From Deltaproteobacteria bacterium (lineage in GTDB: Bacteria; Desulfobacterota; Dissulfuribacteria; Dissulfuribacterales; QOAL01): DNA of 61,082 nucleotides. Made by a program: the position numbers and the translations under genes. The DNA is taken from the NCBI GenBank assembly GCA_027067775.1, contig JAMOVK010000019.1, positions 1 through 61,082 of the forward strand. The letters run 5' to 3'. The notes under the pieces are model-generated. The model was not told where the DNA came from. It ran no database searches and worked only from the letters and a program-made list of their open reading frames with translations. The stretch's first letter is position 1, and every line of letters begins with the position of its first letter. Below, in pieces: positions 5,424-35,362 of the stretch.

Positions 5424-5807
5424 ACCGATCTAGACCCTTTCTCCTGTAACATACAGCTGTTGTACCAATATTTGGTGTTATGCAGCTAGCACTAGAAGAT
5501 CAATGTGGGACATCCAGTGCAGGCTTTAGAAATAACGGCTTTAATAACAGTACAATTTTAAGGCGTCACCTTCACCCTCGATTGCATAAAATGGAGGCAT
5601 TCTGGAAAGTCTAAAAAGTGGGACGGTTTTTTTGAGATTATTACCACCTCAGACCTCCATTCGTCTTGTCACAAAAAACATTCTCTTAGCAACAAAACGC
5701 TCTTACTAAGACATTCTTGGTAGAGTCCAAATATCATGAAATAAAGACATGGAACTTGGGTGATTCCCAATTTTTAAAGGTGGTGTTCTGAACAGCAGGA
5801 TTCATCA

Positions 5808-5998
5808 GATGGATAGGGCAAGGATAGGGGTTTGATTAGACATTTGGGAACAGGGCCTAGAGATTCTTGGTGAAGCGAAGCGGCTGAAACCTCCATTTAG
5901 CGAGCGGCTTTGGAGCGTTTCAGCGAAGCAAACCATAGAAGCACTTGGCCCTGCTTTCCAGTCTAGTCAAAGTCCTTCCTTGCCCGTCCATATCCATC
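5808..5998. repeat. Long imperfect palindrome, element B (inverted relative of element A)
   Basis: gggcaagga/tccttgccc, tttgattagac/gtctagtcaaa, cagggcc/ggccctg, inner gctgaaac/gtttcagc. Shares ttgggaacagggcctagagattcttggYgaa (31 nt, 1 mismatch) with the reverse complement of A. Confidence 0.85.
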
Positions 5999-6167
5999 CG
6001 TTTACCATGGCATGTATAAACTGGAAAAAAGATCCCGCTCATACAGGCAGATTGATAGGTCGAGTATTTCGTTACTGCAGTAATAAGTTGACAAGGGGTT
6101 GGGCTTTTATTTTTTTATCCTAGGATTTTCTGTCTGATTTTCAAAAAGGCCCAAGACAAGTGTAATT

Positions 6168-6740
6168 ATGAAAAGTATCATAGAGTTAGCTCTAAAAGGG
6201 GTTACTAAGGCCCTGGATGAAACGGTAAGTGAACAGTGTCATGTTATTCAGGCTATTGCCTCATCTATTGGTTCCTGCTTAAAGAATAGAGGTAAGGTGC
6301 TTCTTTGTGGAAACGGTGGAAGTGCTGCAGACTGTCAGCACATTGCAGCGGAGTTCGTAAACAGGTTTAAGATGGAAAGATCTCCCCTTCCTGCAGTCGC
6401 CCTGACAACTGATACATCCATCCTGACAGCCATTGCCAACGACTATTCTTTTTCCCAGGTGTTTGCCAAACAGGTTCAGGCCCTTGGCAAAATGGGTGAT
6501 GTACTTTTGGCAATATCAACAAGCGGATCATCTTCGAATATCCTGGAGGCCCTTGAGATTGCAAGACAACTTAACATTGTAACAGTAGGTTTTACCGGGG
6601 CAGCAGATAGTAAGATGGAAGGATTATGTGACATGATCTTGAAGGTAGCCTCTAGAGATACCCCACGCATTCAGGAAGTCCACATATTTTGCGCACATGT
6701 CATATGTGACATGGTTGAAAGGAGTCTTTTTGGCAGATGA
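6168..6740 (+). CDS. gmhA: Phosphoheptose isomerase (sedoheptulose-7-phosphate isomerase)
   Basis: CGNGGSAADCQHIAAEFVNRF, LTTDTSILTAIANDY, ISTSGSS, RIQEVH motifs. Confidence 0.96.
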   Translation: MKSIIELALKGVTKALDETVSEQCHVIQAIASSIGSCLKNRGKVLLCGNGGSAADCQHIAAEFVNRFKMERSPLPAVALTTDTSILTAIANDYSFSQVFAKQVQALGKMGDVLLAISTSGSSSNILEALEIARQLNIVTVGFTGAADSKMEGLCDMILKVASRDTPRIQEVHIFCAHVICDMVERSLFGR

Positions 6741-25809: not shown

Positions 25810-26193
25810 TTGGTTGTTTTGAATCGGTATATCCCGCTTATACTTGCCGGCGTGTTTTTAAATGCCGCGGCCCAGATAGTTATCAAAAAGGGAATGATGC
25901 AGATTGGAACCTTTGCCTTTTCCTTAAAGAATATGGTGCCGGTTGGCATTAAGGTGGCCTCCAGTCCCTTTGTTATCCTTGGTATAATGTTTTACGTTAT
26001 CAGCCTGGTATTGTGGCTAATGGTCCTTTCTAGGGTGGACGTCAGCTATGCCTATCCAATGCTTAGCGTAGGCTACATAGTGGCAGCCCTTTTTGGGAAA
26101 TACATCTTTAACGAACCAGTCGGACCTGTGCGATGGGCTGGTATCATAATTATCTGTATCGGTGTCTATCTCATTACAAGGAGTGCGACCTGA
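25810..26193 (+). CDS. EamA/SMR-family small transporter, ArnE/ArnF-like flippase
   Basis: Four hydrophobic helices; LSRVDVSYAYPMLSVGY motif. True start may be TTG 25819. Confidence 0.8.
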   Translation: MVVLNRYIPLILAGVFLNAAAQIVIKKGMMQIGTFAFSLKNMVPVGIKVASSPFVILGIMFYVISLVLWLMVLSRVDVSYAYPMLSVGYIVAALFGKYIFNEPVGPVRWAGIIIICIGVYLITRSAT

Positions 26194-26195
26194 AT

Positions 26196-27365
26196 ATGAA
26201 AGGCAAAGTTTTTATACCCTTTTGCAGACCAACTATCGAAGAGGACGAGATAAATGAAGTAGTAGACAGCCTTGAAAGCGGTTGGATAACAACAGGTCCA
26301 AAGACTGCCAGATTTGAAGAGGAGTTTAGACACTATCATGGAGGGAAGCAGGAGGCTATAGCGGTAAATTCTGCAACTGCAGGGCTTCATCTGTGCCTTT
26401 TGACCATTGATCTGAAACCAGGAGACGAGGTCATTACCACCTCTATCACCTGGCCCTCCACAGTAAACAATATTGTAATATGTGGTGGAATGCCTGTATT
26501 TGCAGACGTAACCAGGGACACGCTTCAGATAGACCCTTTGGAAATAGAAAGGCGAATTACTGAAAAGACAAGGGCCGTCATCCCTGTACACTTTGCCGGC
26601 GCGCCAGTGGATCTTGACCCCATAAAAGAGCTTTGTCGAAAACACTCTCTCAGCCTTATAGAAGATGCGGCCCACGGCGCAGGAACAGCCTACAAGGGAA
26701 GGCTTATAGGTTCGGATAGCGAGGCAGCGGTCTTTTCCTTTCATCCCATAAAGAATATAACCACAGGCGAGGGTGGCATGATCCTTTGCAAAGACAAAGA
26801 GCAGGCCGGTCGTATCAGGAGGCTCCGTTTTCATGGAATATCAAGGGATGCGTGGAAACGCTACGCCAAGGGCGGAAGCCCCCAGTATCAGGTTGTAGAA
26901 CCAGGTTTTAAATACAATATGCTGGATCTTCAGGCAGCCATTGGCCTGCATCAGCTCAAAAAACTTTCTGCATTTAACAAAAGACGTAAACATCTTGCAA
27001 AAAACTATCTGGATCTGCTTAATGATCTAGAAGCAATAAAGCCTCTTGCCACTGTCCCTTATCCCCACGAACATGCCTGGCATCTTTTTGTAGTACGGCT
27101 TGACATTGACATGTTAAGGGTGAACAGGGACGAATTTATAGCTAGCCTGCAAGATGAAGGAATAGGTGTTGGCCTCCATTTTCCTGCTGTACACTTGCAG
27201 AGTTATTACGCTAGGAGGTTTGGTTTTGGTCGGGGAGAGCTCCCAAACAGCGAATGGAACAGTGACAGGCTTTTTTCTTTGCCATTGTATCCACTTCTTA
27301 AAGAAGACGAACAGGTAAGGGTGGTTGAAACGCTAAAAAGGCTAACTAAAAGGTACAGGATATGA
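26196..27365 (+). CDS. DegT/DnrJ/EryC1/StrS PLP sugar aminotransferase, ArnB-like
   Basis: SGWITTGPK, NSATAGLH, IEDAAH, FSFHPIKNITTGEGG (PLP Lys), GFKYNM. Start moved to 26196. Confidence 0.92.
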   Translation: MKGKVFIPFCRPTIEEDEINEVVDSLESGWITTGPKTARFEEEFRHYHGGKQEAIAVNSATAGLHLCLLTIDLKPGDEVITTSITWPSTVNNIVICGGMPVFADVTRDTLQIDPLEIERRITEKTRAVIPVHFAGAPVDLDPIKELCRKHSLSLIEDAAHGAGTAYKGRLIGSDSEAAVFSFHPIKNITTGEGGMILCKDKEQAGRIRRLRFHGISRDAWKRYAKGGSPQYQVVEPGFKYNMLDLQAAIGLHQLKKLSAFNKRRKHLAKNYLDLLNDLEAIKPLATVPYPHEHAWHLFVVRLDIDMLRVNRDEFIASLQDEGIGVGLHFPAVHLQSYYARRFGFGRGELPNSEWNSDRLFSLPLYPLLKEDEQVRVVETLKRLTKRYRI

Positions 27366-28276
27366 CTGGTAGCAGCGGGCTCAGCCTCAAGATAGATGTA
27401 GACACCCACGACGGCATGAAAAAGGGGGTGCCCAATTTGTTGGAGGACTTTGCCTACTTTGGCATAAAGGCGACCTTTTGTCTTTCTTTTGGGCCTGATA
27501 ATTCAGGAAAGGCCATATTTCGCCTTTTACGTGACCCAAAGTTCATAAAAAAGATGCTTTATACTAGGGCACCAAGTCTTTATGGATTGCGGACAGTGCT
27601 TTCTGGCACACTTCTTCCTGCCAGAGCGATTGCTACGGCCTTTCCAGGGCTTTGTCAAAGAATCAGGGACGAGGGTCACGAGGTAATAGTCCATGCCTGG
27701 GATCACAGGAGATGGCAGGATCACTTGGATATCATGTCAGAGGAGGAAATAAGGGCTCATTTCAAAAAGGCCTTTGACGCATACCAACAGATACTTGGGG
27801 CAAGGCCTTGGGCAGTTGCAGCACCGGGATGGCAGGTAACAACCAGGAGTTTGAAGGTCCAGGATGACCTGGGTCTTCTTTATGCCAGTGATCTTAGACA
27901 GGCCCCGCCATGTATCTTGGAGGCAGAAGGTACAAGATTTAGGACCCTTCAGATTCCCACCACAGGCCCCTGTGTGGAGGAGCTTCTTACCCAGGGAATA
28001 AGGGATGAAGAGGTGCTTGAAGATGCCCTGTTAAAAGGAGTTTCTGACAAGGAGGCCCCGGTTCTGGCCCTTCATGCAGAGGTAGAGGGAACGGTTTTCC
28101 GGCCTTTTTTCAGAAGGCTTATGAGATCTTTGACAGACAGATTTGACGAGTTTCTGACTTTGGCAGATAGGGCAACGAGCCTTCTTGATAATCCAGATGT
28201 TATAAAGATCTGTAAACTTGACTTTATAGAGCTTTCCGGAAGAGCAGGAAAGGTGGCCTCTTGTATCTGTTCATGA
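27362..28276 (+). CDS. Polysaccharide deacetylase-family protein, ArnD-like deformylase
   Basis: LKIDVDT, ATFCLSFGPDNSG, HAWDH, AAPGW, LHAEVEG. Confidence 0.8.
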   Translation: MTGSSGLSLKIDVDTHDGMKKGVPNLLEDFAYFGIKATFCLSFGPDNSGKAIFRLLRDPKFIKKMLYTRAPSLYGLRTVLSGTLLPARAIATAFPGLCQRIRDEGHEVIVHAWDHRRWQDHLDIMSEEEIRAHFKKAFDAYQQILGARPWAVAAPGWQVTTRSLKVQDDLGLLYASDLRQAPPCILEAEGTRFRTLQIPTTGPCVEELLTQGIRDEEVLEDALLKGVSDKEAPVLALHAEVEGTVFRPFFRRLMRSLTDRFDEFLTLADRATSLLDNPDVIKICKLDFIELSGRAGKVASCICS

Positions 28277-28295
28277 TAGATGGCCAAAATGAACT

Positions 28296-29426
28296 ATGAA
28301 GATAGCTATCGTAAGGCGAGAGTGTGGCTTTGGCCTAGGAGGGGCAGAAGGTTACTGCGAGAATGTTGCAAAAGGCCTTTCTAGGCGTGGACATGAGGTC
28401 ACGGTCATAAGCAGGCGTTCGCTTGTCAAGGGAGAGAATATACCCCATGTAAAGGCACGGGTGTTTGGAAGGGGAAGTATTGCCAAGAATCTGTCTTTTT
28501 TTTGGAGCGTTTCCAAAATACTAAAAGGTAACAATTTTGACTGTGTTTACGGGCTTTCAAGAATAGCCAATGCGGACATCCTTCGTATCTCTGATCCGCT
28601 TCATGCTGCATGGCTCGAGCTTGGATATGAAGGCCGTTTTTTACCAAAATGGCTTAGAAGCAGTTTACCAAGGCATATAAGTCTTATTTGGCAAGAAAAG
28701 AAGGCCATTACCAGCGCACGATACATTGTGACCAATTCAAACTTGGTTAAGAATCAGTTGGTGCGCTACTATAAGGTTGATCCATCTTACATAACTGTTA
28801 TTTACAATGGGGTTGATCTTTCTCGCTTTTCTCCCTTGTCTTTGCATGAAAAGAGGCTTGTTAGGCAAGAATTAGGCATCCCATTACAAGATTTGATAGT
28901 GCTTTTTACAGGTTCTGATCCAAGACGTAAGGGTTTTGAGGTATTGCTTCAAGCAGTTGCACCTTTGGTAAATACATTTCAATTCCATCTTGCAGTAGCG
29001 GGATTTACTCCTACAAAGGCCATTAAAGTATTGATTAACAGGCTTGGTCTTGAGGAAAAGGTTATATTCCTTGGCATCAGACAAGATATAGAAAAGATCT
29101 ATGGCGCTTGTGATCTTTTGTGCTTGCCAACCAGTTACGATCCCTTTGCCAACGTTTGCTTAGAGGCAATGGCCTGTGGCCTACCAGTGATAACCACCAG
29201 TCAAAACGGGGCCTCGGAATTGATAAAAGAGGTTGAGGGCGATTGGGTTATACCTGGTCCACAAGAAGACGCCTTAAAAAATGTCCTTGAAACCTGGTTG
29301 CTAATGGATAGTCAGCATAGACAGAAAATAAGTAACAGCTTTGTCTCGCTGGCCTCTAAATTTGGATTTGATTACCATTTGGAAAGGCTTGATCAGCTTC
29401 TGGGTCTTGTTGCGTTGTATAAATAA
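28296..29426 (+). CDS. Glycosyltransferase family 4 (LPS core type)
   Basis: GGAEGY, RKGFEVLL, YDPFANVCLEAMACGLPVITT. Confidence 0.92.
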   Translation: MKIAIVRRECGFGLGGAEGYCENVAKGLSRRGHEVTVISRRSLVKGENIPHVKARVFGRGSIAKNLSFFWSVSKILKGNNFDCVYGLSRIANADILRISDPLHAAWLELGYEGRFLPKWLRSSLPRHISLIWQEKKAITSARYIVTNSNLVKNQLVRYYKVDPSYITVIYNGVDLSRFSPLSLHEKRLVRQELGIPLQDLIVLFTGSDPRRKGFEVLLQAVAPLVNTFQFHLAVAGFTPTKAIKVLINRLGLEEKVIFLGIRQDIEKIYGACDLLCLPTSYDPFANVCLEAMACGLPVITTSQNGASELIKEVEGDWVIPGPQEDALKNVLETWLLMDSQHRQKISNSFVSLASKFGFDYHLERLDQLLGLVALYK

Positions 29427-30185: not shown

Positions 30186-30195
30186 AGGGTAGGAG

Positions 30196-30351
30196 ATGAG
30201 ATCGGGGCCTGATAGAAGACCTTTCTATATCCTTTTTGAAAACATGCCTGTCGGCTGTTTTGTTGTTGACAAGGTTGGTCCTGTAACTGAAAAATACAGG
30301 ACAGTACCAGGGATTTGTTTTTTGAAAAGTCAGCATAAGCCTGACCCTTAG
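30196..30351 (+). CDS. Small ORF (51 aa) with PAS-start-like motif, possible gene remnant
   Basis: GAGGG RBS; MRSGPDRRPFYILFENMPVGCFVVDKVG...; fills the marC to fusion-gene gap. Confidence 0.35.
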   Translation: MRSGPDRRPFYILFENMPVGCFVVDKVGPVTEKYRTVPGICFLKSQHKPDP

Positions 30352-30364
30352 ATCTGTTTCTTTC

Positions 30365-31873
30365 GTGTCGATGCACAAAGTAAAGCTGGTCTTTACCGTT
30401 TCAGCCAAGGACGAGATACCACTTGAGTTCATTAAATCTTGCGGTTGGCAGGTTGTCACTGCAAAGGCGCTTAGAAGCGGCATTCTGTCCAAGGTTTTAG
30501 AGAACAGGAGATCTTCCATTCTTTTCGTTGTTACCGGTGTGGGCAAGGAGAGGACTATTGAGGCTGCAGTTTCTATCTGCCAGTTTCTGTCTCCCCTTGC
30601 GGTTGTCAATATTGGAAGCTGCGGTCTTAACACTATTACCAGCCAGGAGGAAGGCACTGTTTTTATTGCATCCAAGACCCTTGCAGACGGCAAATGGAGA
30701 CAATGTCTGCCCCAGCCTCCCTTTGCCCTGCCCAAGAAGATAAAAATCACAAAGACACCTGTTCAGACCCTTTTGCGTCCTCTTTTTCATAAGACCCCCT
30801 GCATCTGTCAGGTGGTGGATATGGAGGCAGGATATCAGCACGATATATTTGAAGCGCATAACATTCCCTTTTGTGCAATAAAGATTCCTACGGACACCTG
30901 TTCCAGTTCCAGTAGACTTCAATTTGCAAGAAACGTTTCAAGGGTTCGAAATATTATTAAAGATATCTTGGGCTTTTTAACTCTTTCTGCAAAGGATATG
31001 GACATATCCGTTGTCATTCCTGTCCACAACAGGCCTGATTTTATAGAAAGAGCAATAGGGTCTGCGATAAGCCAGAGTCATAGGCCAAAGGAGATAATTG
31101 TGGTGGATGATGGCTCGCAGCCACCTGTCAGTACACTGTTGGGAAGCAGTCTGAAAGAAAAGGTGCGGATAATTAGATTACCGGACAACCGAGGAGTTGC
31201 AGCCAGTCGGAACGCTGGAATTAGGGAGGCCTCTGGCAAATGGATAGCCCTTCTTGACTCAGACGACCAGTGGACCAGGGACAAACTCAGAAACCAGGCA
31301 AATTATATAGAGAACAACCCCTTCTTTGAGATCCTCCAGTGTCAGGAGATCTGGATAAGAAACGGGGTCAGGGTCAACATGTGCAAACATCATGAAAAGA
31401 GGGAAGGGTGGATATGGGAAAAGAGCATCAGGCTTTGTGCCATAAGTCCATCTGCGGTTATTGCTACAAAAGAGCTGCTTTTAGACTTTGGGCTTTTTCA
31501 GGAAGAATTTCCTGCCTGTGAAGATTACGAACTCTGGCTGAGAATAACAAGAAAAAAACCTGTTGGACTTAATCCTGAGGCCGACCTCATAAAATATGGG
31601 GGACATGCGGACCAGCTGTCTGTCAGATTTCCTGCTATGGACAGGTTTAGGGTGGCAGCCTTGTTAAGGGCCCTTGAGGAGGAAGAAAGTCACGTGCACA
31701 GGTATAAATTGACAACGAGTCTTAAAGAAAGACTTGAGATACTTTATAATGGGGCCCTAAAAAGGAAAAAGACAGATGCTGCCAACGTGTATCAAAAGAT
31801 TCTTGGCGCAATAGAGAAAAATGAAGCCGTTTCATGGAACAAGTATCCATTGCTAATTCAAAAATTCACGTGA
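30365..31873 (+). CDS. Nucleosidase/phosphorylase-like domain fused to a GT2 glycosyltransferase
   Basis: N-terminal VTGVGKE, VNIGSCG, VVDMEAG, IKIPTD; C-terminal SVVIPVHNR, VVDDGS, ALLDSDD (DxD), CEDYELWLR. Confidence 0.82.
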   Translation: MSMHKVKLVFTVSAKDEIPLEFIKSCGWQVVTAKALRSGILSKVLENRRSSILFVVTGVGKERTIEAAVSICQFLSPLAVVNIGSCGLNTITSQEEGTVFIASKTLADGKWRQCLPQPPFALPKKIKITKTPVQTLLRPLFHKTPCICQVVDMEAGYQHDIFEAHNIPFCAIKIPTDTCSSSSRLQFARNVSRVRNIIKDILGFLTLSAKDMDISVVIPVHNRPDFIERAIGSAISQSHRPKEIIVVDDGSQPPVSTLLGSSLKEKVRIIRLPDNRGVAASRNAGIREASGKWIALLDSDDQWTRDKLRNQANYIENNPFFEILQCQEIWIRNGVRVNMCKHHEKREGWIWEKSIRLCAISPSAVIATKELLLDFGLFQEEFPACEDYELWLRITRKKPVGLNPEADLIKYGGHADQLSVRFPAMDRFRVAALLRALEEEESHVHRYKLTTSLKERLEILYNGALKRKKTDAANVYQKILGAIEKNEAVSWNKYPLLIQKFT

Positions 31874-32826
31874 TTAACCCAGGGCATATTGATCTTGGCC
31901 TTGATTTTTCATATGTCCTTGATCTTATTGGTCTTTGGAACACGACAAGGCTTTTTGACAGCCTTGAAATGTCAGGCATTGTCTGTCCCTTGGTAGCTGT
32001 TGATACCGATCTATCAACAAGAAAGGGGTCTTTAAAATTGATAGATGGCTTTAAAAGGCTTGAGTGGGCAAGGCAGAAAGACCTTGAGAAAATTCCAGTT
32101 GCAACAGTCCATATGACCAACATGGACCTCCTTGTCTTTTTTCTTTCAAAATATGCTCCCATGCTCAAAAGTTGTGTTTCAAAGGCATTGTTTTTGAGAT
32201 TCCTTTTGAAAGTTGGCGCCAACAGGCAAGCAGTAGTTGACAAGGCTATGAAGTCTCTTGGACTTCAGGCCCATAAAGGGCTTTTAGAAAAATATCTTCG
32301 CATTGCGCAACTGCCAGAAAGGTTTTTGGCATTTTGCCATAAAAAGGATTTTTCCCTTAAGCGGTGCCTGAATTTCACCTATCAGCCAAGAGCGCTTCTT
32401 GAAAGGATAATGGACCTCGAAGGTCAGATATCCCTCTCGGCAAGCCTGTTGCAGGAAGTGTGTGACAGTATCTCCGAGATTATAAGACGTAAAGAAATAG
32501 ACGTGGAAGAATTTTTCCAACTGGATGAAATAAAAGGGATTATAGATTCAGATCTCGAATGCTCATACAAGACCGGTCTGCTTCGTCAGGCTATAAGGAG
32601 GCTTCGATATCCTGCTGTTACCAGGATTCAAAAGGAGCTGTGCGATATTGAAAAACAGTATCTGGCCTCGCTTCCCTTTAAGGTAAAATGGGACGAGACC
32701 CTTGAAAACAGAAAACTGATTATTACTGCATCAATTAAGCAGATCGATGAATTTTCCAGACTAAGGGCCTCCTTTTCAAGCCCTGAGGCCAAGGAAGGAA
32801 TTAAAAGACTTCTTTCTTACTTTTAA
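31834..32826 (+). CDS. ParB/Srx N-terminal-domain protein
   Basis: SLEMSGIVCPL...LIDGFKRL resembles the ParB/sulfiredoxin fold; helical C-terminal region. Confidence 0.65.
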   Translation: MEQVSIANSKIHVINPGHIDLGLDFSYVLDLIGLWNTTRLFDSLEMSGIVCPLVAVDTDLSTRKGSLKLIDGFKRLEWARQKDLEKIPVATVHMTNMDLLVFFLSKYAPMLKSCVSKALFLRFLLKVGANRQAVVDKAMKSLGLQAHKGLLEKYLRIAQLPERFLAFCHKKDFSLKRCLNFTYQPRALLERIMDLEGQISLSASLLQEVCDSISEIIRRKEIDVEEFFQLDEIKGIIDSDLECSYKTGLLRQAIRRLRYPAVTRIQKELCDIEKQYLASLPFKVKWDETLENRKLIITASIKQIDEFSRLRASFSSPEAKEGIKRLLSYF

Positions 32827-32828
32827 AC

Positions 32829-33941
32829 ATGAAATTTAAAAGCGTAACCGTTGATCCGCATGTCGCAGAACCATCTGTTTTGAAACATTTTCCATATTAT
32901 TCCTTGTCTTCACAGAGTCCCAAATTTTCAGATTACAGGCAGGGCAAACGGCATCTTTTTGTTGCGCCAAAAAAGGGCGAGCTTTTTCATATATGTGCCT
33001 CCCTGGATACCCGTTACATATGTTGCAGTACCCATGTCATCTCTCACATTAGTAACTGCCCTTTTGAGTGTACCTACTGTTTTTTACAAAATTATCTTAC
33101 GGACACAACCCTGACAGTTGTTGCGGATACAGAGGCCATAATGAGGGAGATTTGCTATAAAACTGCCCTTCAGCCTTGGAGACTTTTCAGGATTGGCACA
33201 TGGGAACTTGGAGACAGCCTTGCCGTTGAGCCTCTTAATAAATTCGCTGTCGATCTTGTAAGGCGGTTTAGAGATCTTGATAATTGCCTGCTAAAGTTGA
33301 GAACCAAGGGGGATGCTGTTGAGCCGCTGCTTGATGTTGAACATGGTGGCAAAACGGTTGTATCCTGGACGGTTAATCCTCCTGAAATCATAAAACGAGA
33401 AGAGATAGGTACCGCAGGCCTTGAAAAACGCATTCAGGCCATGAAAAAGGTGGCAGGGGCTGGGTATCCAGTTGGCCTCCACTTTGATCCCATGATTATG
33501 TTCAGCGGTTGGGAGGCAGCATACAAGAGGCTGGTTGAGGCCATCTTTTCTGCCATTGATCCTGAAGATGTTATCTGGATCTCCATAGGAAGTCTCCGTT
33601 TTAATCCCGAGATGAAAAAAAAGATAGAGAATAACTACCCTTCTTCTAGGATAACAGCTCAAGAAATGATACTGGGTGATGACAACAAGTTCCGCTATCC
33701 AAGGCCGCTGAGGGAGGAGATGTACAGACTGCTTTTGTCTTTTTTAGAGGAGGTAGGAGCTGATCAATGCTTTACCTATCTGTGTATGGAGAGATGGAAT
33801 GTCTGGGAAAGGGTCTTTGGACGTTGCCCCAGTTCTATAGGCCATCTTGATTATCTAATGGCCCAGACAGTGTACGAAAGGTTTCCGCAGAGTGTTTTCC
33901 AAAAACCCCAGAAGGCGTTTTATATGGCTCTGACCTATTGA
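32829..33941 (+). CDS. Spore-photoproduct-lyase-like radical SAM protein
   Basis: NCPFECTYCFLQNY (CxxxCxxC), LRTKG, SWTVNP, LHFDPM, KFRYPRPLR, YLCME. Confidence 0.85.
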   Translation: MKFKSVTVDPHVAEPSVLKHFPYYSLSSQSPKFSDYRQGKRHLFVAPKKGELFHICASLDTRYICCSTHVISHISNCPFECTYCFLQNYLTDTTLTVVADTEAIMREICYKTALQPWRLFRIGTWELGDSLAVEPLNKFAVDLVRRFRDLDNCLLKLRTKGDAVEPLLDVEHGGKTVVSWTVNPPEIIKREEIGTAGLEKRIQAMKKVAGAGYPVGLHFDPMIMFSGWEAAYKRLVEAIFSAIDPEDVIWISIGSLRFNPEMKKKIENNYPSSRITAQEMILGDDNKFRYPRPLREEMYRLLLSFLEEVGADQCFTYLCMERWNVWERVFGRCPSSIGHLDYLMAQTVYERFPQSVFQKPQKAFYMALTY

Positions 33942-33945
33942 GATC

Positions 33946-34899
33946 TTAAAAAAGCGGGCTTTTCCTGGCCTTGTGCCAGTTCAGTATGATATTCCAGGCC
34001 TCTTCGGCATTATCTGCAAAGGAAAAGATTTCAAGATCCTTTGCCGCGATGGTACCCTCTTCAACAAGGAATTCAAAGTCTATAAGCCTGTTCCAATACC
34101 TCTTGCCCAACATTACAATTGGCATCGGTTCCTGTTTGTGGGTCTGGACCAGGGTAAGGGTCTCAAAAAGTTCGTCCAATGTGCCAAATCCTCCAGGATA
34201 CACTACAAGGGCCTTGGCCCTGTTAAGGAAGTGAAGCTTTCTCATTGCAAAATAATGAAACTGGAAACAAAGCCCAGGTGTGATGTACGGATTTGGATAC
34301 TGTTCGTGAGGAAGCTGGATATTTAAACCAATAGATTTTGCCCCAACATCAAAGGCCCCCCTGTTTGCTGCTTCCATGATGCCAGGACCTCCACCAGTCA
34401 TCAGTATGATTCTGCAATCTTCAGGCCCTCTGCCGCTTTGGCCTATTAGTCTTCCAAGCTGTCTCGCATCGTCATAGTAGATGCTTTTTTCAACCATTTT
34501 TTCGGCAACAGCAAGCTTCCTCAAGAGTTTGTCAGATTCGCCAGACTGTTTCAACTTTTTCTGGACGGCCTCCAACCTCTTTAGTGCGGTCTTTTTTTCC
34601 ACTATCCTGGCACTACCAAAGACTACAATGGTGTGTTCCACACCAAGCTCTTGGAGTTTCAACTCCACTTTCAGGTAGTCCAGCTGAAGCCTGATGCCCC
34701 GGGCCCTTGGAGATTTGATAAAATCAATATCCTCCTCAGCCAGCCTGTAACTAGGGTCTTCCATAATACGTTTTACAAGCTCCTGGGCCTTGGGGTCCTC
34801 ATCTTTACGCTTTGGTCTCTGCCAGGGAAGAATCTTTTCGTTTTCGTCGTTGTTTATCTTGTTATTTTTTGTCATAAAGTTAGTTATCTGTTGAGGCAT
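33946..34899 (-). CDS. LOG-family nucleotide phosphoribohydrolase (lysine-decarboxylase-like family)
   Basis: [49 protein letters not shown]. Start may be 34875. Confidence 0.92.
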
Positions 34900-35362
34900 A
34901 AAACTTCACAAGTTCTATGCCAGCCTCGTTTAACATCTCTCTTGCCAGATCGTCTGGATAGCCTTCTTCGTAATAGATGCGTTTGATACCGGCATTTATC
35001 AGCATTTTTGTACATATGGCGCAAGGAAGATTTGTACAGTAAAGCACAGAGCCGGCCACTGGTATACCATGAAAGGCTGCCTGAATAAGCACATTTTGTT
35101 CAGCATGGAGAGCCCGGCACAACTCATGCCTTTGACCAGATTTGATGCCGAGTTTCTGCCTCAGACAGCCAATCTCAAGACAGTGTTTCAGCCCGGCAGG
35201 TGCTCCGTTATACCCTGTGCAAAGCACCCTTTTATCCTTTACCAGTATAGCTCCCACCTTTCTTCTAAGACATGTGGAGCGGCCAGCCACCAGTCTGGCA
35301 ATGGACATAAAATATTCATTCCAGCTGGGTCTTTTGTCTTTGCCACCTTCAGTCTCACTCAC
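34880..35362 (-). CDS. dCMP deaminase-family protein
   Basis: [27 protein letters not shown] zinc motifs. Confidence 0.93.

Follow-up and report, generated by a model that had tools for sequence, protein, structure and literature searches.

Three co-oriented genes in the window (the whole stretch of DNA analysed, 61,082 nucleotides) form one operon, encoding a nucleosidase-GT2 fusion, a ParB-like protein and an SPL-like radical SAM enzyme. This three-gene arrangement is not due to chance, and the gene set probably builds a sugar-bearing modification, possibly on DNA. The present analysis establishes the structure of the genes, the folds of their products, the integrity of the catalytic motifs and the co-inheritance of the set.

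Results

Organisation of the operon

The features of the locus are the following.

30266..30295, + strand: promoter-like site TTGACA-18-AAAAAT (weak, from a consensus scan only)
30365-31873, + strand: gene 1, nucleosidase-GT2 fusion, 502 aa from GTG (longest ORF)
30371..30990, + strand: MTAN/HpnG-type nucleosidase domain at the N-terminus of gene 1 (about aa 1-207)
31000..31873, + strand: GT2 (GT-A) domain of gene 1, extended at its C-terminus by conserved helices
31834-32826, + strand: gene 2, ParB-like protein, 330 aa
32829-33941, + strand: gene 3, SPL-like radical SAM enzyme, 370 aa

The overlapping and abutting arrangement reported in the first-pass annotation is confirmed in the sequence. 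The ATG of gene 2 (31834) precedes the TGA of gene 1 (31871-31873) with an overlap of 40 nt, which recurs in relatives (for instance 8001 versus 8040 at locus L009), and the junction TAAacATG leaves a gap of 2 nt between genes 2 and 3. For gene 1, an ATG at 30371 (500 aa) is favoured by the database entry and by the alignment of orthologues. A gap of 179 nt, containing the promoter-like site, separates gene 1 from a marC-like gene; the consensus scan returned as many sites as in shuffled sequence. No terminator-like site above shuffle level was found between the three genes, and a riboswitch search found none. In this window the operon adjoins ArnB-like, ArnD-like and GT4 sugar genes.

Co-inheritance and distribution

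In a set of 41 related genomes, 20 carry both the SPL-like gene and the fusion gene. Of these 20, 19 also have the ParB-like gene, which is interrupted at a contig end in the twentieth, and the remaining 21 genomes have none of the three; the arrangement is thus non-random. The co-occurrence on which the earlier proposal of a module had been made to depend was therefore found in 20/41 relatives, and also in several other phyla, usually with the genes adjacent. It holds even where the fusion gene sits on a separate contig (G011, G015 and G021). Orthologues are present in at least six phyla, the hosts including Thermodesulfobacteriota, Nitrospirota, Bdellovibrionota and Margulisiibacteriota; the genome studied here comes from a hydrothermal-vent metagenome. 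The module is chromosomal, vertically inherited within the family and flanked by housekeeping genes.

The idea of a three-gene module stands as regards a co-inherited set, but the conserved unit is larger and layered. The ParB-like/SPL-like pair is its invariant part. In other lineages, 18 of 23 module-bearing genomes have the nucleosidase, either within a full-length fusion (12) or as a stand-alone orthologue (6), often unlinked. The core thus consists of the ParB-like protein, the SPL-like enzyme and the nucleosidase, which is nearly always present although sometimes unlinked; GT2 and an aldo-keto reductase often accompany it as accessory members. In 25 of 62 loci the SPL-like gene is immediately followed by the reductase orthologue, which is encoded in 15/20 module-bearing relatives and 0/21 of the others, with its Asp-Tyr-Lys-His tetrad intact; in the present genome it is unlinked to the operon (contig C52). 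Since GT2 and the reductase are absent from many module-bearing genomes, they are not essential steps.

Our searches of papers, curated families and defence models brought up none that covers this gene set, so its first description as an undescribed pathway stands.

The nucleosidase and GT2 domains of gene 1

Both domain calls of the proposed nucleosidase-GT2 fusion were upheld. By its profile, the N-terminal domain is a nucleosidase of the MTAN/HpnG type with the catalytic set intact. A single-sequence Pfam search gave a marginal match only (0.011); a profile of 14 orthologues matched MTAN structures with an E-value of 8e-12, and hhalign aligned the domain with the HpnG of the same genome (96.3% probability, E 1.7e-9). 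Residues E15, D150-M151-E152 and D175 are invariant and correspond to E12, M173-E174 and D197 of MTAN. The invariance of E15, E152 and D175 was scored over 24 sequences, E152 and D175 being aligned by HMMER and E15 placed by its position in strand 1. We take the catalytic residues of MTAN to be Glu12, Glu174 and Asp197 in the E. coli numbering. The nucleosidase fold, whose absence had been named as a ground for refutation when the module was proposed, is accordingly of MTAN/HpnG type with the Glu/Glu/Asp set in place. The domain falls below the named equivalog cut-offs (HpnG, 15.2 bits versus 187.1; fut_nucase, 11.9 versus 124.7; MTAN, 12.5 versus 169). With three other PNP_UDP_1 genes in this genome, it is a fourth, dedicated paralogue.

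The C-terminal domain matches PF00535 (2.3e-31, 109.4 bits against a cut-off of 23.3), and its motifs DDGS, DSDD (DxD) and CEDY(D/E) are nearly invariant. Its best Foldseek matches are CgT, WrtF, TarP/TarS and RmlT (1e-13 to 1e-15), and none of the NCBIfam equivalog cut-offs was reached. The AF2 model of the fusion (pLDDT 91.4, pTM 0.90) suggests, through its pTM, that nucleosidase and GT2 form a fixed two-domain unit.

The ParB-like protein

On profile and model comparisons, gene 2 encodes a divergent ParB-fold protein whose DNA binding is putative. It is built of a ParB/Srx N-domain, a helical region like that of ParB and a C-terminal domain peculiar to the family, and its family comprises 128 representative clusters at E<1e-30. 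Single-sequence Pfam searches gave nothing above threshold (ParB_N only at E 0.2); the earlier ParB/Srx call was nevertheless borne out by a family profile against Caulobacter ParB 6T1F (2e-4), by Foldseek and by hhalign. With the AF2 model (pLDDT 89), the best Foldseek matches are Noc, ParB and KorB (about 4e-5 over ~200 columns, probability 1.00); Srx and SbnI are also among the matches, but the full N-domain plus helical domain of ParB/Noc/KorB match better than these small domains. The genome's canonical ParB, from a ParAB pair on contig C118, aligns at 82% (hhalign, E 1e-5) through the HTH region, where the turn of the ParB-like protein is 6 residues longer.

The likeness to ParB/Noc/KorB thus covers the N-terminal ParB/Srx fold and the helical region, including LRIAxLP for the LRLLxLP of ParB. 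The differences lie in the CTP-binding and hydrolysis motifs GERRxR (box II) and ENxQR (box III), which are absent (DGFKR versus GERRW, FFLSKY versus LIENIQRED), and in the lack of a parA neighbour and of a detected ParB_C dimerisation domain. Neither Pfam HTH_ParB nor ParB_C was found in the protein, whereas the genome's own ParB has both. The DGFKR motif at the box II position, which stands in place of GERR, is itself wholly lost in one marine clade.

The SPL-like enzyme

Gene 3 had been read as an SPL-like radical SAM enzyme, and its match to PF20903 (1.5e-27) and its motif CPFECTYC agree; by sequence it belongs to the SPL family, in a non-canonical clade. It matches the SPL of G. thermodenitrificans at 2e-21, is about 26% identical to SplB and stays below the SplB equivalog cut-offs (TIGR04070, 115.6 bits versus 400; TIGR03886, 55.1 versus 437.55). 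G. thermodenitrificans SplB is known from the structures 4FHC-4FHG; Arg273 and Lys309 are its lesion-phosphate residues, Arg304-Tyr305 form the tip of a beta-hairpin, and the H-atom donor is Cys140 in the Bacillus type, with Tyr98 as relay, and Cys77 in the Clostridium type (PMC3467042).

The SPL-like enzyme shares with SplB the radical SAM fold, the CxxxCxxC motif and Tyr96 (Y83). Over 57 orthologues seven cysteines are invariant, C77/C81/C84 (counterparts C90/C94/C97) among them, and so is the SAM-carboxylate lysine K160 (K174). As a candidate H-atom donor, the invariant C56 falls at the position of the donor in clostridial SPL (Ser76 in the G. thermodenitrificans enzyme). R257, R289-Y290 and R295, also invariant, line up in the sequence alignment with R273, R304-Y305 and K309, so that lesion-phosphate and hairpin-tip residues would both be represented. 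In contrast, the radical relay is altered, an invariant glutamate (E126) replacing Cys140 and F85 replacing Tyr98, and a 7-residue insertion with a Cys-Cys pair and a further invariant cysteine (C319) also set the enzyme apart from SplB. The context differs too: the upstream partner is ParB-like and not SplA as in the splA-splB operon of endospore formers, the hosts belong to non-sporulating lineages, and nucleosidase, GT2 and reductase are co-inherited with the gene.

Discussion

From these data we infer an adenosylation chemistry, an order of steps and a substrate. In the proposed mechanism the SPL-like enzyme would cleave SAM while the ParB-like protein holds it on the substrate. The 5'-deoxyadenosyl radical would then, in the manner of HpnH and MqnE, add to a substrate sp2 carbon instead of abstracting a hydrogen, and the product radical would be quenched by the invariant Cys56. 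Removal of adenine by the dedicated nucleosidase domain would leave a C-linked 5-deoxyribosyl group, which the reductase, where present, may open and reduce to a pentitol chain, prior to the addition of a sugar by the fused GT2 domain. The acceptor would most likely be a pyrimidine nucleotide, possibly in DNA, because the lesion-holding residues of SPL are conserved in sequence. We put forward this sequence of adenosylation, base removal, reduction and glycosylation as a tentative model, to which we give slightly less than even weight.

The model draws on the co-inheritance of the genes, also when the fusion or the nucleosidase is unlinked, on the co-inherited reductase with its intact tetrad and on the dedicated nucleosidase paralogue with its invariant catalytic set. 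An SPL-like active site that seems to keep a donor-position cysteine and the equivalents of R273, K309 and R304-Y305 is consistent with it, as is the predicted rigidity of the fusion (pTM 0.90). By analogy, the pairs HpnH/HpnG and MqnE/MqnB offer a precedent: to our knowledge they are the sole operon-encoded pairs of a radical SAM enzyme and a PNP-fold nucleosidase, and both are adenosylating. Against the model, many module genomes lack GT2 and the reductase, and known SPL-family enzymes abstract hydrogen. Adenosylation, as far as we know, has been shown only in unrelated radical SAM subfamilies, and we know of no nucleosidase, reductase or GT2 acting on a DNA-bound group. The ParB-like protein, in turn, has neither GERR nor ENxQR and carries the 6-residue insertion in the HTH turn, so its DNA binding is putative.

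In the futalosine pathway, MqnE couples the 5'-deoxyadenosyl radical to a double bond, much as proposed here, and MqnB (or MTAN), a nucleosidase of the MTAN fold, then removes the base. The nucleosidase domain matches the futalosine hydrolase model weakly; the module differs in its radical SAM subfamily, in having no linked menaquinone genes and in its GT2, reductase and ParB-like partner, which are without counterpart there. The hopanoid side chain is made by HpnH, which adenosylates, the nucleosidase HpnG, ribose opening and reduction to a polyol, and the GT2 HpnI (PMC13459092). The module has the same order of enzyme types and its nucleosidase is homologous to the genome's own HpnG, yet its radical SAM enzyme is SPL-fold and not HpnH, its GT2 misses the HpnI model, and hopanoid synthesis has no ParB-like component. 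The HpnH/HpnG precedent invoked at first therefore holds as an analogy of logic only, since elsewhere this genome encodes a genuine HpnH (contig C106; 525 bits, cut-off 225) and, next to HpnA, an HpnG-like gene.

A DNA base modification or repair system and a glycosylated small-molecule product had both been suggested, and either may be right. As regards DNA, the radical SAM isomerase gp53 of phage M6, an SPL-like enzyme of thymidine hypermodification, acts on a DNA base, which shows that this fold can serve to install DNA chemistry and not only to repair it; gp53 differs in being phage-encoded, in starting from 5-hydroxymethyl-dU and in its partners, a kinase and amino-acid transferases (PMC8989533). 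In a chromosomal, oxygen-independent hypermodification the ParB-like protein would recruit the SPL-fold enzyme, the C5=C6 bond of a pyrimidine flipped into the SPL-type pocket would be adenosylated, in place of hydrogen abstraction at C6, with quenching by Cys56, and nucleosidase, reductase and GT2 would complete a base bearing a glycosylated pentitol chain. The hosts would be uncultured and probably mostly anaerobic bacteria. Known DNA hypermodification systems are usually phage- or plasmid-borne and/or have a restriction-type partner; neither was found here, which speaks against the model, and we consider this form of it doubtful, although conceivable.

Alternatively, the SPL-like enzyme may reverse a non-UV C-C or cross-link lesion of DNA or RNA by hydrogen abstraction like SplB, its closest characterised relative, with the ParB-like protein finding or holding DNA, the nucleosidase clearing inhibitory 5'-deoxyadenosine, and GT2 and reductase in a side function. 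The conserved lesion-phosphate and hairpin residues, the candidate donor cysteine, the ParB fold of the partner, the invariance of the ParB-like/SPL-like pair alone and the vertical inheritance of the module among housekeeping genes all agree with such repair. Some lineages have SprT-like or ribonucleotide reductase genes close to the module, but such DNA-related neighbours are specific to their lineages and frequently sit on the other strand. Three other PNP_UDP_1 enzymes could clear 5'-deoxyadenosine, yet the dedicated nucleosidase is co-inherited even when unlinked; repair would not account for the strict co-occurrence of GT2 or for the frequent reductase, Cys140 and Tyr98 of the relay are replaced, and spore photoproduct is not expected in non-sporulating hosts such as the present hydrothermal-vent one. 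We regard lesion repair as unlikely.

A soluble route is in our estimate just as improbable. In it, the radical SAM enzyme would act on a pyrimidine nucleotide-sugar or other metabolite and the reductase on a keto or aldehyde group, GT2 would transfer the product to an envelope or metabolite acceptor, and the ParB/Srx protein would be a subunit that binds nucleotides or works like a kinase, comparable to SerK, SbnI and sulfiredoxin. In its favour, GT2, reductase and nucleosidase are of kinds typical of metabolism, the fold matches include Srx and SbnI, and the conserved R257/R295 pair could bind a diphosphate instead of DNA. The sugar genes upstream of the operon would fit, but they are missing from the loci of the closest relatives, and across the 62 loci a nucleotide-sugar synthesis gene was never a conserved neighbour. 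The ParB-like protein is, moreover, closer to full ParB/Noc/KorB than to Srx or SbnI, and the nucleosidase has a weak role unless adenosylation occurs.

ParB-like proteins such as DndB and DpdB are found in some DNA-modification defence systems. An anti-phage or restriction-linked modification island is nonetheless highly improbable here: no PADLOC defence model matches any of the three proteins, a nuclease, helicase or restriction partner is not conserved at the 62 loci, housekeeping genes flank the module, its inheritance within the family is vertical, and searches of plasmids and of phage and viral-contig collections found no orthologue (the latter giving two weak SPL-family matches of 23-27% identity). 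An alternative or additional hopanoid side-chain pathway to glycosylated bacteriohopanepolyols, whose enzyme logic (HpnH, HpnG, reduction, HpnI) matches and whose squalene-hopene cyclase is encoded in this genome, is rejected as effectively refuted, the cyclase being missing from 20 of 22 other-lineage module genomes (two complete chromosomes among the 20) and the genuine hpn genes lying elsewhere.

If the adenosylation model is true, radical SAM chemistry that adds a 5'-deoxyadenosyl group would have arisen a third time independently, on the SPL scaffold, in addition to HpnH and MqnE, and for the first time in an enzyme that has a ParB-fold partner. Were the substrate DNA, several phyla would share a new type of base modification that is produced without oxygen and encoded as a housekeeping function; long-read signals from these organisms would then have to be read with this in mind, and one would have to ask what the modification is for. 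On the conservative reading, in which the enzyme is a new lyase for lesion repair, radical DNA repair would no longer be confined to spores. The SPL-like enzyme family comprises >500 sequence clusters, whose members carry the public labels 'hypothetical', 'spore photoproduct lyase' or 'DNA photolyase'; the latter two are probably wrong for the family.

Operon organisation

The three genes are open reading frames of the forward strand and occupy exactly the positions that the first-pass annotation had assigned to them:

30365-31873, + strand: gene 1, nucleosidase-GT2 fusion
31834-32826, + strand: gene 2, ParB-like protein
32829-33941, + strand: gene 3, SPL-like (spore photoproduct lyase-like) radical SAM enzyme

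As read in the sequence, the ATG of gene 2 lies 40 nt ahead of the stop of gene 1, and genes 2 and 3 are joined through TAAacATG with a gap of 2 nt. The database entry and the alignment of orthologues favour ATG 30371 as the predicted start of gene 1 (500 aa) over GTG 30365. No terminator-like site above shuffle level was detected between the three genes, and the sole candidate 5' of the operon is a weak promoter-like site. Control by a riboswitch was rejected, since Rfam gave no riboswitch or leader RNA in the window or in 12 module loci. Among public sequencing runs the sequence was found in a single DNA run, a hydrothermal vent metagenome, and in no RNA run.

Several neighbouring genes were also considered. 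On the same strand upstream (26133-29426) there are an ArnB-like aminotransferase (NF008658, 4e-145, below cut-off), an ArnD-like deformylase and a GT4 glycosyltransferase, which were rejected as module members as they have no conserved adjacency to the module in relatives; this block looks like a local amino-sugar gene insertion, because in the closest relatives this position is occupied by TsaE, a nucleotidyltransferase, or ribosomal and tRNA genes. Congeners carry a PAS-HisKA histidine kinase between a marC-like gene and the module (5444-6517 in locus L009; 5418-6488 in L011), where the window has only a gap of 179 nt (30186-30364); the kinase was likewise rejected, being absent from the genome of the window, whose best paralogue (contig C95) is merely 36% identical. 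Downstream, a LOG/SLOG-like (Lysine_decarbox) gene on the minus strand converges with gene 3, the two stops being separated by 4 nt, and is followed by genes for a cytidine/dCMP deaminase-family protein, SHMT and RpiB (33946-35362, - strand), a synteny confined to the genus.

Conservation of the module

The trio is a real, conserved gene module, as demonstrated by its distribution in 41 related genomes.

Co-inheritance of the module components in 41 related genomes (component: module-bearing genomes; other genomes)
SPL-like orthologue: 20/20; 0/21
Nucleosidase-GT2 fusion: 20/20; 0/21
ParB-like gene: 19/20 (the twentieth cut at a contig end); 0/21
Aldo-keto reductase orthologue: 15/20; 0/21

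The trio is contiguous wherever contigs permit, the fusion being on a separate contig in three of these relatives (G011, G015 and G021). Some module-less relatives encode a distant SPL-family paralogue with 22-30% identity. In the genome of the window the reductase is unlinked (contig C52) and its catalytic tetrad is intact.

A wider survey, in which species-representative genomes were scanned, yielded 62 loci from Thermodesulfobacteriota, Nitrospirota, Bdellovibrionota, Margulisiibacteriota, Gammaproteobacteria and MAGs labelled Rickettsiales or Actinomycetota. The SPL-like gene has the ParB-like gene ahead of it in 50/62 loci, the remainder mostly ending at a contig edge. A nucleosidase orthologue is adjacent in 27/62, fused to the GT2 in 25 of them and free-standing in the other two (L049 and L073), and an aldo-keto reductase (PF00248) lies immediately 3' of the SPL-like gene in 25/62. 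For loci that lack an adjacent fusion, the same genome usually has, at another site, either a full-length orthologue or the nucleosidase domain on its own; 18 of 23 genomes tested carry one or the other (12 full-length, 6 nucleosidase only), and 11 of these 23 encode the reductase orthologue. Thus the module is layered: its core consists of the nucleosidase, the SPL-like enzyme and the ParB-like protein, and the GT2 and the reductase are frequent accessories. The module is also carried by complete chromosomes (CP070669.1, CP070644.1 and CP070632.1).

Other neighbours vary with lineage. In Nitrospirota (e.g. L046 4817-6077 and L052 8842-10095) SprT-like metalloprotease, Cys-rich zinc-ribbon-like and PIN/PhoH-like genes recur downstream of the SPL-like gene (clusters c5 in 12 loci, c11 in 7 and c18 in 5), the SprT-like and small zinc-ribbon-like genes lying on the strand opposite to it; this neighbourhood may be mere lineage synteny. 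In a marine clade, which comprises Marinamargulisbacteria and some MAGs with the labels Rickettsiales or Actinomycetota, an acidic low-complexity protein is encoded after the SPL-like gene, before the reductase where one exists, and class I ribonucleotide reductase genes are located downstream. In one MAG (L037, 2703-5007) the ParB-like gene is immediately preceded by an AMP-nucleosidase-like PNP_UDP_1 gene (NF005500, 8.5e-103) and a gene for a Memo-AMMECR1 fusion, whereas this genome has its true nucleosidase-GT2 orthologue on a different contig.

Domain assignments

Residues 215-400 of gene 1 form a GT2 domain (PF00535, 2.3e-31) whose motifs DDGS, DSDD and CEDY are nearly invariant in the orthologue alignment. 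The AF2 model of the fusion (pLDDT 91, pTM 0.90) resembles in its GT2 half CgT, WrtF and the ribitol-phosphate glycosyltransferases TarP, TarS and RmlT. Since the fold search was dominated by these GT2 matches, the N-terminal domain was assessed by profile searches instead. The first ~210 residues gave marginal matches in a single-sequence search (PNP_UDP_1, 0.011; HpnG, 0.012), whereas a profile built from 14 orthologous N-domains matched MTA/SAH nucleosidase structures at about 1e-11, and hhalign aligned the family with the HpnG of the same genome, whose gene adjoins HpnA, at 96% probability. The nucleosidase domain looks active, given that E15, D150-M151-E152 and D175 are invariant and align with the MTAN catalytic residues Glu12, Met173-Glu174 and Asp197.

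The protein encoded by gene 2 is a divergent ParB. It has no Pfam match above threshold; its family profile matches the ParB structure 6T1F (2e-4), its AF2 model (pLDDT 89) matches Noc, ParB and KorB across about 200 columns, and hhalign aligned it with the canonical ParB of its own genome across the N-domain and HTH region. Compared with the latter, it has DGFKR instead of GERR, lacks box III, shows an HTH turn longer by 6 residues and has no detectable ParB_C domain. The family comprises 128 representative clusters at E<1e-30. A distant member, an Acidobacteriota MAG protein (P0024; 27% identity, motif VDGFKRLEWA), is named 'ParB/RepB/Spo0J family partition protein' at NCBI, a name that is probably misleading for this family. 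In seven marine-clade loci (L053, L060-L063, L066 and L067) the DGxKR motif is lost in six and retained in L066.

Gene 3 belongs to the SPL family (PF20903, 1.5e-27; Geobacillus structure, 2e-21) and scores 115.6 bits against an SplB equivalog cut-off of 400, far below it. At E≤1e-60 its clade numbers at least 517 clusters; the organisms named among the 120 best matches are all MAGs. The GT2 Pfam match, the MTAN profile, the ParB fold match and the SPL family match thus bear out the three domain assignments made at first reading.

Active site of the SPL-like enzyme

The active site was compared by two alignment methods in 57 orthologues and a Bacillus SplB, using the residue roles described for SPL (PMC3467042).

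SPL residues and their equivalents in the SPL-like enzyme
C90/C94/C97 (cluster): C77/C81/C84, kept
Lys174 (SAM carboxylate): K160, kept
Tyr96: Y83, kept
Arg273 (lesion phosphate): R257, kept
Lys309 (lesion phosphate): R295, kept, basic
Arg304-Tyr305 (hairpin tip): R289-Y290, kept
Cys140 (Bacillus-type H donor): E126, replaced
Tyr98 (relay): F85, replaced
Clostridial Cys77 / Gt Ser76 position: C56, invariant Cys

Since the lesion-phosphate and hairpin residues are conserved but Cys140 and Tyr98 are replaced, the enzyme is predicted to retain an SPL-type pocket suited to a phosphate-linked pyrimidine substrate, and not the Bacillus-type radical relay. The orthologues have further invariant cysteines, C65, C66 (7-residue insertion) and C319, which might be auxiliary cluster ligands or a thiol relay.

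Proposed pathway

To our knowledge, all characterised MTAN-fold nucleosidase subfamilies (MTAN, HpnG, MqnB) release adenine or hypoxanthine from 5'-substituted adenosines, and HpnH/HpnG and MqnE/MqnB are the only operon-encoded pairs of a radical SAM enzyme and a nucleosidase. HpnH and MqnE add the 5'-deoxyadenosyl radical to a double bond, and in the hopanoid route the ribose is then opened and reduced before glycosylation by a GT2 (PMC13459092). The enzyme types of the module match this series, and its nucleosidase is co-inherited despite three further PNP_UDP_1 enzymes in the same genome. By this analogy we tentatively favour, at somewhat below an even chance, a pathway of adenosylation, de-adenination, reduction and glycosylation. 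In the SPL pocket the pyrimidine C6 sits beside the SAM 5' carbon; an undamaged C5=C6 bond at that point would make radical addition, rather than abstraction, plausible on chemical grounds, with C56 as a possible quencher of the radical.

The conserved lesion-binding residues, together with the ParB fold of the partner, point to a nucleic acid as the putative substrate. These features would also fit a system for SPL-type lesion repair, which we consider unlikely, the Bacillus-type H donor and relay tyrosine being replaced. Caution over a nucleic-acid substrate is required because the ParB motifs are degenerate and we know of no precedent for a nucleosidase, reductase or GT2 acting on DNA; a nucleotide-sugar or small-molecule pathway seems improbable in its turn. 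Either leading reading would extend radical SAM chemistry, and the boldest, if true, would represent a new kind of DNA modification. The first-pass annotation had cautiously proposed an undescribed pathway to a glycosylated nucleoside-derived product, or DNA base modification or repair; that interpretation is supported, with the trio conserved across 20/41 relatives and other lineages and the nucleosidase fold found. No paper combining SPL, ParB and radical SAM was returned by the literature search, and the gene set is undescribed as far as we found.

A catalogued defence system was rejected, as PADLOC gave no match to the module proteins, and a defence role is very improbable. Mobile or phage origin was rejected too: no orthologue was present in phage, viral-contig or plasmid collections, the phage collection giving two weak SPL-family matches (23-27% identity), IMG/VR none and the plasmid search only distant true splB genes. 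Hopanoid-related chemistry is the least credible reading and was rejected: the genome encodes squalene-hopene cyclase, HpnH, HpnG and HpnA, but its genuine HpnH, HpnG and HpnA lie apart from the module, and 20 of the 22 other module-bearing genomes have no such cyclase. Because it carries these cyclase, HpnH, HpnA and HpnG-like phosphorylase genes (C2:17027-17923, C106:23543-24502 and C157:767-3541), this Thermodesulfobacteriota MAG of hydrothermal-vent origin probably synthesises extended hopanoids; the phosphorylase gene adjoins an MlaA-like lipoprotein gene.
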